Source: a virus
IMG/VR virus record: IMGVR_UViG_3300042731_003785
Direction: 5' to 3' (one strand)
Length of the DNA stretch: 64,000 nucleotides
Part shown: positions 9,126 through 19,537 of the stretch, piece by piece
Numbering within the stretch: position 1 is the stretch's first letter
Layout: the number at the start of each line of letters is the position of its first letter
The notes under the pieces: generated by a model
The model's database searches: none
The model's input: only the letters and a program-made list of their open reading frames with translations
What the model was told of the DNA's origin: nothing
Position numbers and translations under genes: made by a program

Positions 9126-9154
9126 TTGACTATCGCAACCCTGTCTTATATGGT
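9126..9154 (+). promoter_or_regulatory. sigma70-like promoter of the cas operon
   Basis: TTGACT-N17-TATGGT. Confidence 0.7.
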
Positions 9155-9215
9155 GTGATTCACCAAGACGTTAGCTAGCTGCCTTCTTGGAGGGCAGCGA
9201 GGAAAGGACGGACGC

Positions 9216-9914
9216 ATGGTTATCGACCAGGCGAGACGGAGGAAAGTGTCCTCTTACGGAGGACTTCGTACGACGGCCCCCTACCACATACGTGCGCGAG
9301 GTTCGCGGGCCACTTGGCTCCAGCCGGCGTTTCGTAGCGAGGCTCACACATCTCTGGTGGGATCCCACTCTGCGTGGGAGGGCCTTCTCCGAGGCATCTT
9401 TGGAAAGAGGGAGACGTTGTGGTTGATCCACTCGGTCTCCTTTCTGTTCGAGCCGCGCACGGTGGCCGACACGATGTGCGAAGCCAAGAAGTTCAACGAT
9501 CGTGGACCGACCCTGATGCACAAGGTGCACACGCTTCGAACGACGACGTCGCTGGTCAATCCGGATTACTTGATCTGCGCGAGTCTTGCGGTGAACCCGA
9601 ACACGGCTCGTGAAGACGACTCGGTTCAGAAGTTCCACAAGATGTTCATGGAGCGGATCACGAAGGGCAAGGAGTTCAAGACGCCGTATTTCGGTCAGCG
9701 GGAGAACGCTGCTCACCTGGAGCTGGTATCTCATCCAGATCAGTACCAGCCTGTCGACATCAACCAGGACTTGGGGCTCTTCTTCTACGGAGTGGATCGC
9801 TTGGATCCGGAGCAGCCCTACTACTTCGCTCCCCTGGAGGTTGAGCACGGTGTGGTTTCGTACCCCTCTTGGGACTCGGTTCGAGAGCTAGGCATTCGGA
9901 GGTACGTATCATGA
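9216..9914 (+). CDS. cas5: Cas5, type I-C-like
   Basis: N-terminal RARG..ATW..P....E..S....HSAWEGLLRGIFGK resembles Cas5c; DDSVQKFHKMF..R..KG...PYFGQRE, DLG..FYGVD, VEHGVV. Confidence 0.85.
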   Translation: MVIDQARRRKVSSYGGLRTTAPYHIRARGSRATWLQPAFRSEAHTSLVGSHSAWEGLLRGIFGKRETLWLIHSVSFLFEPRTVADTMCEAKKFNDRGPTLMHKVHTLRTTTSLVNPDYLICASLAVNPNTAREDDSVQKFHKMFMERITKGKEFKTPYFGQRENAAHLELVSHPDQYQPVDINQDLGLFFYGVDRLDPEQPYYFAPLEVEHGVVSYPSWDSVRELGIRRYVS

Positions 9915-16103: not shown

Positions 16104-16297
16104 CCTGTCGTTGCTCTTCGAGAGGCTAAGTGCTTCCTCTTCTTTGGGGACCTCTCGCTGCTCTTTGAAAACAAGGGGTTTGTCGTGTGTGCGGGTGCTC
16201 TGTTTTGGTGCTCGTGCGCACTTATTTTGTGAGGTGCTGGGAACCGCTCGCAATACTGGTTCTAATGCTTCATGTTCGTTGCGGTTTTCTAGAACGG
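16104..16297 (+). promoter_or_regulatory. CRISPR leader
   Basis: Non-coding, T-rich segment adjacent to the most homogeneous repeats. Confidence 0.7.
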
Positions 16298-19200
16298 GTG
16301 GAGGTCCCCGAAGGGACCTCCGTGTGTTGAAAGATGACCGCTCGAAGTGCATCTGCACCGTGGGCCGCGAGGTGGAGGTCCCCGAAGGGACCTCCGTGTG
16401 TTGAAAGCTCTATCCCCGGGACCGCACACGCTCGTGCTCGTTGTGGAGGTCCCCGAAGGGACCTCCGTGTGTTGAAAGCGGATAGGGCGGCTCGGTTCAG
16501 ACGACACAATAGAAGTGGAGGTCCCCGAAGGGACCTCCGTGTGTTGAAAGACGCCCAATGCCCTTTGGACGACGCGGCGTAGCTTGTGGAGGTCCCCGAA
16601 GGGACCTCCGTGTGTTGAAAGCGGACGTCCTGGCAGAGCGAATGCTCGATGCTCTCTGGTGGAGGTCCCCGAAGGGACCTCCGTGTGTTGAAAGTAACGG
16701 CCGTCGAGCGGCGAGAGAGACCTCGCTCTAGTGGAGGTCCCCGAAGGGACCTCCGTGTGTTGAAAGCGGTGGCGGCGCGATGTCCCGAATCTCCGGCTCA
16801 CCAGTGGAGGTCCCCGAAGGGACCTCCGTGTGTTGAAAGAGCCAAATCTCACAGAATCCGCTCCACGTCTGGAGGCCGAGGTGGAGGTCCCCGAAGGGAC
16901 CTCCGTGTGTTGAAAGTAACGGCCGTCGAGCGGCGAGAGAGACCTCGCTCTAGTGGAGGTCCCCGAAGGGACCTCCGTGTGTTGAAAGGAGCCCGAGATG
17001 GTCGAGGCACTGCGCGAGGATCCCCTGTGGAGGTCCCCGAAGGGACCCCCGTGTGTTGAAAGAAGAAGAACGGCACGTCAGCCGCGACGCATTGGTCCCT
17101 GTGGAGGTCCCCGAAGGGACCTCCGTGTGTTGAAAGAGCGCGCTGTCGCCGAGGTGGGCGTAGCGCTGCGTCAGTGGAGGTCCCCGAAGGGACCTCCGTG
17201 TGTTGAAAGCCGTCGCACTCGACCGAGCACATCCCGCCAACGCAGTGGAGGTCCCCGAAGGGACCTCCGTGTGTTGAAAGAAGCTCGTCCTGGGCTCACC
17301 CTGGATGTAGCTCGATGTGGAGGTCCCCGAAGGGACCTCCGTGTGTTGAAAGTTCGGGTTCTTCGCGATCGCATCAAGCGCTTCCCGGACGTGGAGGTCC
17401 CCGAAGGGACCTCCGTGTGTTGAAAGAGGTTGCTCGGGATCGTGAGGCTCCGCCTCGGTGGCGTGGAGGTCCCCGAAGGGACCTCCGTGTGTTGAAAGAT
17501 GTTTCTGCTCCTTGGTTTGATGCTTCCGCGGTAGGGGTGGAGGTCCCCGAAGGGACCTCCGTGTGTTGAAAGCCAACTGCCTGACGGTTCTTGAAGCGGA
17601 CCTCGATGCGTGGAGGTCCCCGAAGGGACCTCCGTGTGTTGAAAGGCGCAGCACCACACGGTCGGCAGCATCGTCGCTCGTCTGGGTGGGGGTTCCCCGT
17701 GTGTTGAAAGCACTTCCTCGCTGGGATCCACGCGCTGGCAGAAGACGGTGGAGGTCTCTTCGGGGATCTCCGTGTGTTGAAAGTCCTCGTCAGCGGGAGT
17801 GAACGTATGCAACCGCCTCGTGGAGGTCTCTTCGGGGACCTCCGTGTGTTGAAAGGGAGCCGCGAAGACCCCGCCGAGCATTGCCGCCCTCGTGGAGGTC
17901 TCTTCGGGGATCTCCGTGTGTTGAAAGATTGCTGAGTTCCATGGTCCGTTCTCCTGAGTTCGTTCGTGGATGTCTCTTCGGGGACCTCCGTGTGTTGAAA
18001 GTGGCTCGGCATGAGCGCGGCCGTTGCAGTTGCGACGGGTGGAGGTCCCTTCGGGGATCTCCGTGTGTTGAAAGCGGAGGAATCGCGCGGCTTCGTCCCG
18101 CGTCATCAGTGTGGAGAATGTTGAAAGAGCCCATCGGGGTCGTCTACTCCCGGTCCCTTGACGTGTGGAGGTCTCTTCGGGGACCTCCGTGTGTTGAAAG
18201 GAATCCTTCGGGGCGCGCAATCTGAGGGGCATTCGGGTGGAGGTCTCTTCTGGGACTCCGTGTGTTGAAAAATGGGCATCCAAGGCGGCATGGCGAGTCG
18301 ATTGCGTTGTGGAGGTCCCTTCGGGGATCTCCGTGTGTTGAAAGGGGACGAGGGGGACGCGGCTCGGGATCCCTGGTGCTGGTGGAGGTCTCTTCGGGGA
18401 CCTCCGTGTATTGAAAGTAGCGCTCTCGCAGCTCACAGACCCCCTGGCGCCGGTCGTGGAGGTCCCTTCGGGGACCTCCGTGTGTTGAAAGGGCTTGCTG
18501 ATCCCCAGCGCGACGTCTTCGCAGACTTGTGGAGGTCCCTTCTGGGATCTCCGTGTGTTGAAAGTCGAGATGGTCGGCCGGCATGGCGAGCGTCAGAAAG
18601 TGGAGGTTTCTTCGGGGACCTCTGTGTGTTGAAAAGAATGAAGCCTGCGGATGGACGCGCGGTACGTGTCGTGGAGATCCCTTCGGGGATCTCCGTGTGT
18701 TGAAAGCGCGCGTGGGTACGCCTCTGCTCCTTCAGCATGGCGTGTGGAGGTCTCTTCGGGGACCTCCGTATGTTGAAAGCGTCAGGCAGCGAGTCGCGTC
18801 ACGAAGAAGAGCAAGTAGGTGGAGGTCCCTTCGGGGATCTCCGTGTGTTGAAATGCCAGCACGGTTCCCAGAACGTGGGGATCTTGAGGTCTCCGCTTGT
18901 TGAAAGTCCGGCCACTAGATCTCGCGCGGCATGCCGTCTAGATCTCGCAAGAGGTCTCCGTTTGTTGAAATTAGACCGGCTGCTGTCCGCTCGGGAGCAG
19001 CTCTGCCGTGGAGATCTCGTAAGAGGTCTCTGTTTGTTGAAACGTTAGCGTGAGTCCAGTCGAGGTGGGGTGTCTCTGCCAGTGGAGATCTCGCGAGAGG
19101 TCTCCGGGTGTTGAAAGCAGGGCGGAGTGCCGGACGACTACATCGTGGTGGAGATCTCGCAAGAGGTTTCCGCTTGTTGAAAGGGCGTGGCGCTGCGAAC

Positions 19201-19537
19201 GCTAGGCTCGTGCGAGCTGCTGTGGAGATCTCGCGAGAGGTCTCCGTTTGTTGAAACGGAGAACTACGGGCAGTCCGACGAGCTGTGGAGATCTCGTAAG
19301 AGGTCTCCGTTTGTTGAAATGCCATTTGCTCGGCGGTGAGCAGCTCCTCCGGCTCCGTGGAGACTTCGCAAGAGGTCTCCGTTTGTTGAAAGGTGTAGAT
19401 GCAGATCTCCGTCGAGCGTCGCTTCGTGAAGCCTTCGTAAGAGGTCTCCGCTTGTTGAAAGTGTAGCGCAACGGGTAGCGCGTCCCGCGGATCATGACCC
19501 GGTGGAGATCTTGCTGGAGGTCTCCGTTTGTTGAAAA
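16298..19537 (+). CRISPR. CRISPR array, ~46 repeats and ~45 spacers, three repeat variants
   Basis: 36-nt repeats: GTGGAGGTCCCCGAAGGGACCTCCGTGTGTTGAAAG x19 (16298-17645); GTGGAGGTCYCTTCGGGGAYCTCCGTGTGTTGAAAG (17748-18854); GTGGAGATCTCGNRAGAGGTCTCCGTTTGTTGAAAN (~18936-19537); spacers mostly 35-41 nt. Confidence 0.98.

Follow-up and report, generated by a model that had tools for sequence, protein, structure and literature searches.

In huge phages, a 'type I-C variant' of CRISPR-Cas has been described in which Cas1 and Cas2 are missing and a helicase stands in for Cas3 (Al-Shayeb et al. 2020, Nature 578:425; PMC7162821). In the accessible parts of that article, the Cas5 of the variant is characterized as Cas5d-like and Cas6 as lacking (Extended Data Fig. 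9), many phage CRISPR loci are reported to be devoid of interference genes, and both published variant phages carry a second system, CasPhi (Cas12j); the accessible main text mentions neither a methyltransferase-fold gene nor a winged helix-turn-helix (wHTH) gene. The variant is listed among the non-nucleolytic systems of mobile elements in a subsequent preprint (10.1101/2023.06.23.546257); it has been cited since 2020 and never dissected. A locus of this kind is found in a 64-kb stretch of the IMG/VR virus record IMGVR_UViG_3300042731_003785 (hereafter the window, meaning the whole stretch of DNA that was analysed), 47 open reading frames (ORFs) of which were scanned for family content.

The window locus is a divergent new member of this published, uncharacterised variant. 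It is phage-borne and encodes a type I-C-like Cascade with a non-Cas3 helicase in the same operon, without Cas1, Cas2 or Cas6, next to a CRISPR array; as far as the accessible parts of the 2020 article describe the variant, all these features are shared, as is the resemblance of Cas5 to Cas5d. The differences are that the proteins of the window are 23–36% identical to those of the published locus, and that there is no CasPhi and no second array within the 64 kb. The helicase-for-Cas3 type I-C architecture, which an earlier note on this DNA had treated as a novelty, was thus already in print in 2020, judging from the same parts of PMC7162821. What is new here is that the helicase comes with two conserved partners, a methyltransferase-fold protein and a wHTH protein, and that the motor itself resembles HsdR; no description of the two genes behind the helicase was found in the literature text that could be searched.

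The locus consists of six genes, all with intact ORFs, on one strand, in the order cas5c, cas8c, cas7c, a superfamily 2 (SF2) helicase, a gene for a protein of 234 amino acids (aa) with an apparent S-adenosylmethionine (SAM)-methyltransferase fold, and a 70-aa wHTH gene, followed by a leader and the array:

9126–9154, + strand: promoter-like site upstream of cas5c (TTGACT, 17 nucleotides (nt), TATGGT; 9/12 consensus match)
9216–9914, + strand: cas5c, 232 aa, from Pfam, NCBIfam and PADLOC scans (PADLOC Cas5c, E = 6.8e-24; TIGR01876, E = 2e-11)
9911–11653, + strand: cas8c/csd1, 580 aa from the ATG at 9911 (PF09709, E = 7.8e-34; PADLOC Cas8c, E = 2.2e-24)
11761–12840, + strand: cas7c/csd2, 359 aa (PF05107, E = 9.8e-56; TIGR02589, 185.3 bits, above the cutoff of 182.25)
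12895–15180, + strand: SF2 motor protein, 761 aa (ResIII, E = 8.1e-11; HsdR-like profile and fold matches)
15177–15881, + strand: predicted class I SAM-methyltransferase-fold protein, 234 aa (AlphaFold2 model, Foldseek and VIA matches, motif conservation, synteny)
15891–16103, + strand: wHTH protein, 70 aa (homologues and ESM Atlas neighbours)
16104–16297, + strand: leader, 194 nt, with a terminator-like hairpin and T-run at 16185–16221
16298–19537, + strand: CRISPR array, 46 repeats of 36 nt and 45 spacers

The cas genes, accessory genes, quoted peptide motifs and array that the earlier note had read from the letters of the DNA are all present. The single promoter that it placed at 9126 is the weak point: the site, which points away from a minus-strand transfer RNA (tRNA) cluster, is one of three of the same quality in the region, compared with 2.3 expected by chance, and therefore is no evidence for a single promoter.

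The Cascade is derived from type I-C, but neither Cas3 nor the adaptation genes occur in the locus or the window. All three cas genes are identified by Pfam, NCBIfam and PADLOC. Cas5c matches the type I-C Cas5 chains in the PDB (3kg4, E = 8e-09; 8g9t, 5.4e-08; 7kha, 3.2e-06), the best PDB match of Cas7c is Cas7 of the Desulfovibrio vulgaris type I-C Cascade (7kha, 1.8e-40), and the best solved relatives of the cas products come from the D. vulgaris and Neisseria lactamica type I-C Cascades. The scores of Cas5c and Cas8c lie far under the NCBIfam equivalog cutoffs. No Cas6 was matched in the locus by the family scans, as is the case in type I-C; Cas5c, the type I-C Cas5, is presumed to be the endonuclease that processes the precursor of the CRISPR RNA (pre-crRNA). 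The same scans found no match to cas3 or an HD nuclease, and none to cas1, cas2 or cas4, whether within the locus or among the 47 scanned ORFs of the window, bearing out the type I-C-like Cascade without cas3 and adaptation genes that had been proposed earlier; the loci of the relatives described below likewise yielded no cas1, cas2 or cas4. Although the cas8c ORF is open already from a TTG at 9869, the start at 9911 overlaps the cas5c stop in an ATGA, which couples the two genes, has a GGAGG ribosome-binding site upstream, and is also backed by the gene call on the sister contig L001, which stems from a different JGI sample, is ~98% identical and contains the same locus and array. Canonical type I-C systems (Dvulg; D. 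vulgaris 7KHA, N. lactamica 8G9S) share with the window the Cas5c-Cas8c-Cas7c set, the lack of Cas6, and a repeat with a hairpin and a tail ending in GAAAG, whereas the window locus lacks their Cas3 (HD plus helicase, the signature of type I) and Cas4-Cas1-Cas2, and has three unrelated genes between cas7 and the array.

The association of these additional genes with the Cascade is conserved in other huge phages. Genomic context was looked up for 12 distinct members of the 234-aa family, nine of which had enough upstream DNA to be informative, and in eight of these nine, cas5-cas8c-cas7, the helicase (674–847 aa) and the methyltransferase-like gene follow each other in the same order. With eight of the nine contexts cas-linked, the outcome that the earlier note had named as one that would speak against its reading, a lack of linkage between homologues of the pair and cas genes, did not occur. 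The proteins encoded across the cas-linked loci are only 23–36% identical, and the contigs of the relatives reach 349 kb (L009, an NCBI/ENA huge-phage assembly, in which the order of all six genes is identical to that in the window) and 437 kb. The methyltransferase-like gene overlaps the gene upstream by 1–14 nt in 11 of the 12 members, and arrays adjoin the locus in the three relatives that were scanned (L005, L009 and L011), with repeats that differ from those of the window and are type I-C-like. The helicase and the methyltransferase-like protein behave as a dedicated accessory module. The loci vary in the large subunit region: in three relatives (L013, 6131–6628, and two JGI contigs), a short cas8c (440–484 aa) is accompanied by a separate 165–171-aa gene before cas7, which, at a guess from its position, might encode a stand-alone Cas11; the 165–171-aa protein shows no BLASTP similarity to the Cas8c of the window.

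The motor is supported as a restriction-type (HsdR/ResIII) helicase, not a Cas3-type one. The protein begins with MDLYDYQ, with nothing ahead of the Q motif, and the helicases of the relatives have at most ~25 residues before it, as anticipated by the claim that the N-terminal HD domain is absent. The motifs GSGKT, DEAH, LTATPWRSD and QIIGRIMR are found in the window protein, and the family alignment shows that G-x-GKT, DE(A/T)H, T(A/G)T and Q-x-x-GR-x-MR are kept in all full-length relatives. Residues 1 to ~390 make up the RecA1 and RecA2 domains, and the region from ~390 to 761 is all-helical and contains no conserved His/Asp cluster in the family alignment. When a profile of eight family members was searched against the PDB sequences, the best match was HsdR of type I restriction (3h1t, E = 3.6e-10), followed by XPB-II, RadD, RapA and the type ISP enzymes LlaGI and LlaBIII, whereas the sole Cas3 appeared at E = 0.24; together with the ResIII family match and the fold search, this difference agrees with the ResIII-like rather than Cas3-like helicase of the earlier note. 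The AlphaFold model of the helicase is of low confidence (predicted local distance difference test (pLDDT) of 56.5) because the alignment is shallow, and its top Foldseek match is HsdR of EcoR124I (6h2j). No HD, PD-(D/E)xK or other nuclease domain is detectable in the motifs, the alignment or this low-confidence model. The comparison with the PADLOC DinG profile gave E = 0.0062 with no passing stretch. A word-index homologue search with the single sequence or a two-sequence alignment recovered no relatives of the helicase, locus searches in IMG/VR found none of either the helicase or the 234-aa protein, and neither protein had a DNA or tblastn match in the GenBank phage collection, which contained only remote matches to Cas7, in gut phage fragments.

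The 234-aa protein was identified by structure prediction alone, since neither the single sequence nor a 51-sequence profile gave an identification in Pfam, NCBIfam, PHROGs, PADLOC or the PDB sequences. A HMMER search of 1.84 billion representatives yielded 76 relatives (representative clusters) at E ≤ 1e-3, all but a few of them 190–301 aa long and 25–41% identical to the query; 51 relatives formed the alignment used for the AlphaFold2 model and the conservation counts, and none of these 51 family members has a Pfam methyltransferase match. The model (pLDDT 94.5; predicted template modelling score 0.91) displays the strand and helix order of class I methyltransferases. Foldseek retrieved 43 matches in the PDB at E ≤ 1e-3, essentially all of them SAM methyltransferases, and the top 50 are class I methyltransferases except for one spermidine synthase and one methyltransferase-fold Diels-Alderase. 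In the VIA-align comparison, 735 chains were aligned at Z ≥ 8 (best Z 12.0), with methyltransferases and aminopropyltransferases in the top range of 10–12. One member of the family is annotated as a class I SAM-dependent methyltransferase in the AlphaFold DB (template modelling (TM) score 0.78), and the ESM Atlas neighbours are large nameless viral clusters that, by structure, include RlmI and RsmD.

The four peptides that the earlier note had taken for the motifs of a class I methyltransferase (YLEIFGDSG, FIAVDQD, VHGDA and FYNFDG) are in the protein, and the positions of the cofactor motifs are conserved across the family alignment: E37 (46/51), G40 (48/51) and G43 (45/51) in motif I, D/E66 (50/51) in motif II, and D91 (43/51), preceded by G90 (36/51), in motif III. 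D111, at the motif IV position, is invariant (51/51), motif IV reading N-h-D-(T/G)-T in this family, and so are K8, N147, M219 and R223 (each 51/51). The gene starts at the GTG within a GTGA that overlaps the helicase gene and couples the two translationally, with a GAGGAGG ribosome-binding site 4–10 nt upstream; K8 and W11 fall ahead of the ATG chosen by the database gene call, which supports the overlapping GTG start. The predicted fold and the conserved motifs support a class I SAM-methyltransferase fold with a conserved cofactor site, and the protein is apparently competent to bind the cofactor. The structure searches have thus placed the two ORFs, for which the earlier note had called for them, with HsdR in the case of the helicase and with the methyltransferases in the case of the 234-aa protein. 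The latter contains no target-recognition domain, and no extra domain fits in 234 aa.

Several further genes related to SAM or DNA modification, unlinked to the CRISPR locus, are present in the window, namely those for a SAM decarboxylase-like protein (25850–26239; E = 1.8e-15), a canonical N6/N4 DNA methylase (34978–35748; 3e-14) and a GmrSD_C-type nuclease-domain protein (36005–36709; 5.7e-06). Aminopropyl transfer, a candidate activity raised by the decarboxylase gene along with the spermidine-synthase matches, was set aside because methyltransferases dominate the fold matches of the 234-aa protein and the decarboxylase gene is not beside the system in the gene tables of the relatives.

The 70-aa gene that follows does encode a wHTH protein, as had been suggested: its ESM Atlas neighbours, by features and structure, belong to the wHTH families FaeA/PapI, MarR, HTH_24 and DUF977 (TM score 0.71–0.75). 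Homologues with 34–43% identity occupy the same position in L009, L011, L015 and L004, and a homologous wHTH gene follows the methyltransferase-like gene in at least five loci.

Each repeat of the array forms a 9-bp hairpin and has a 3' tail ending in GTTGAAAG. The first 19 repeats, proximal to the leader, are near-perfect, and two drifted repeat families come after them with the stem kept. The repeat pattern had 0 matches in shuffled sequence, and the array is the only one in the 64 kb. The pattern was not matched in 185,579 species genomes, IMG/VR or the JGI metagenome contigs, and the 16-nt repeat tail had 69 single matches in the species genomes, which is the chance level. Spacer matches to the window and to the related loci did not exceed the chance level. 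Across the three successive repeat families, the stem is held through compensatory and wobble changes, whereas the loop and the tail ending in GTTGAAA(G) drift; among the distal units, repeats 20, 26 and 37 are shortened. Spacers 6 and 9 are identical. The window and the sister contig differ in an internal block of spacers (16840–17136 in the window, 11610–12037 in L001) located between the shared spacers 8 and 12, with three spacers in the window, one of which duplicates spacer 6, and five different ones in L001. This turnover within the array, without cas1 or cas2, suggests by its position recombination rather than acquisition at the leader end.

Type IV-A systems with DinG carry out nuclease-free interference that resembles CRISPR interference (CRISPRi). 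The window locus has in common with them the carriage on a mobile element, the absence of an adaptation module, a helicase in place of the nuclease-helicase and, as proposed here, a non-nucleolytic outcome. It differs in encoding type I-C Cas proteins instead of Csf effectors, an HsdR/ResIII-like SF2 helicase instead of the XPD-like DinG, and a methyltransferase-like partner that type IV-A does not have. The type I and type ISP restriction enzymes (HsdR + HsdM; LlaGI/LlaBIII) are similar in another respect, the pairing of an SF2 motor of the double-stranded DNA translocase type with a SAM methyltransferase subunit, and HsdR, which the window motor matches best in both sequence and fold, also shares with it the SF2 translocase core and the helical C-terminal domain. 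In contrast to these enzymes, the window motor has no PD-(D/E)xK nuclease domain, the methyltransferase-like protein has no NPPY/DPPY motif, there is no HsdS or target-recognition domain, and specificity would come from Cascade.

In the proposed mechanism, Cas5c would process the pre-crRNA by cutting it at the base of each hairpin, and Cascade would form an R-loop on its target DNA, which could belong to a competing phage, to a plasmid or to the host. This structure may then recruit a heterodimer of the motor and the methyltransferase-like protein, in the way that Cas3 is recruited in type I and DinG in type IV-A, and ATP-driven translocation would block the machinery of transcription or replication or strip it off, while the proteins of the system itself would not cut the DNA. 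The SAM subunit might modify nucleic acid near the target or act as an HsdM-like SAM-binding regulatory or bridging subunit; the wHTH protein is most likely a regulator of the operon or the array; and the spacers would be inherited or acquired in trans. Taken alone, the identification of the parts is very likely correct. The whole account, including nuclease-free interference, is the best explanation and is put forward with a modest degree of confidence; the same guarded preference applies to the statement that interference proceeds without a nuclease, by occupancy and translocation, which follows the analogy with type IV-A DinG. Of the crRNA-guided, non-cutting action envisaged by the earlier note, the nuclease-free part is plausible, whereas methylation of the target finds no direct support, motif IV not being of the DNA-methyltransferase type, and it appears doubtful that the target nucleic acid is methylated.

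Several observations weigh against this account. The search for Cas3 and HD nucleases covered the 64-kb window, and Cas3, an HD nuclease or another effector is possible elsewhere in the phage genome. For the C-terminal third of the helicase, the view that there is no nuclease fold draws on secondary structure and on roughly six distinct sequences in the alignment. In the 234-aa family, motif IV differs from the (D/N/S)PP(Y/F/W) motif of the DNA amino-methyltransferases and from the PC and ENV motifs of the C5 enzymes, and the nearest named structures of the protein are the ribosomal RNA (rRNA) methyltransferases RlmI and RsmD. Four spacers, compared with every sixth base left free, had no protospacer in viral or metagenome contigs, and no experimental study of any member was found in the searchable literature. 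Finally, one relative, L015 (8281–10981), contains a remnant of the helicase gene together with the methyltransferase-like and wHTH genes, and neither cas genes nor an array were seen in the 8 kb upstream or the 0.9 kb downstream; its helicase is truncated N-terminally and lacks RecA1, and the locus is either a decayed one or a sign that the trio is able to move alone.

The first of these points leaves room for a destructive system, in which the phage Cascade, with or without the motor, would recruit a nuclease in trans, either the Cas3 of a host type I-C system or a phage nuclease. The accessible parts of PMC7162821, where many phage CRISPR loci lack interference genes, lend some substance to such a scheme, and so does the GmrSD_C-like nuclease ORF within the window itself. 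However, a motor with intact ATPase motifs is kept at the Cas3 position in every cas-linked relative, which would be needless if the host Cas3 were used; the scores of Cas5c and Cas8c relative to the equivalog cutoffs make compatibility with a host Cas3 doubtful; and no host array with this repeat turned up among the species genomes. Recruitment of an external nuclease is accordingly considered improbable. About as improbable is an RNA-guided modifying machine, in which Cascade would replace the specificity subunit and the HsdR-like translocase and the methyltransferase would mark DNA or nascent RNA, resulting in epigenetic silencing without a cut. The divergent motif IV, which is neither of the DNA amino- nor of the C5-methyltransferase type, the lack of room for target recognition, and the structural neighbours, which besides RlmI and RsmD include the tRNA and rRNA methyltransferases Trm1, TrmK and KsgA, the protein methyltransferase METTL13, spermidine synthases and small-molecule methyltransferases, point instead to a role other than methylation of target DNA: the 234-aa protein might be a SAM-binding adaptor or sensor that couples the motor to Cascade, in the manner of HsdM and the SAM cofactor in type I restriction enzymes, or a modifier of RNA (crRNA or target transcripts) or of protein. 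The invariance of D111, which occupies the catalytic position, and of K8, N147 and R223, which lie away from the cofactor site, suggests that the protein acts catalytically on a substrate and is not purely structural. A role other than methylation of target DNA, which can be entertained tentatively, is compatible with nuclease-free interference, the identity of the substrate aside.

The trio of helicase, methyltransferase-like and wHTH genes could also be an independent mobile module, akin to restriction-modification or anti-defence, that merely lies beside Cascade. The trio of L015 without cas genes and the large viral Atlas clusters of similar proteins would fit this case, but the conserved linkage, in which all the genes share one strand, the junctions from cas7 onwards are short or overlap and the trio is situated between cas7 and the array, speaks for integration with Cascade, and the helicase of L015, having lost RecA1, makes that locus look decayed and not autonomous, so an independent module seems quite unlikely. 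A decaying type I-C remnant without a present function would account for the missing adaptation genes, the degenerate distal repeats and the truncated units; nevertheless, with all six ORFs intact, catalytic and cofactor motifs retained at the low identity seen across the relatives, the leader-proximal repeats near-perfect, and two sampled phage variants that differ in the internal spacer block, decay is very hard to credit.

The Cas3-less, helicase-linked CRISPR systems of mobile elements, exemplified by type IV-A, have altered the view of CRISPR interference. For the huge-phage variant, the conserved partners and the restriction-type motor now provide a concrete, testable model of a six-gene module. 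Should the methyltransferase prove to act at the target, the variant would become the first naturally occurring modification system guided by CRISPR, and it would offer a compact scaffold on which to build programmable marking without a cut; if it does not, the variant would still represent a second, independent origin of helicase-based, nuclease-free interference.

The remainder of the window contains the tRNA cluster, matches to virion and tail-fibre PHROGs at 50–58 kb, nucleotide-metabolism genes and many ORFs without a family; this content fits a large phage. The tRNA cluster comprises four calls (one Trp-CCA and three 'Ile-AAT' whose anticodon positions are odd) and is back-to-back with the cas operon, in a minus-strand stretch with the coordinates 8535–8937 (−) and 7608–8696 (−); the minus-strand gene that adjoins the cluster has, on the sister contig, a Pfam match to PTH2 (peptidyl-tRNA hydrolase). 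A patatin-like phospholipase (47052–47918; E = 1.4e-24) is encoded beside very large structural or fibre proteins, which extend over 50021–57965, include products of 1278 and 1060 aa, and repeatedly match virion structural PHROGs.

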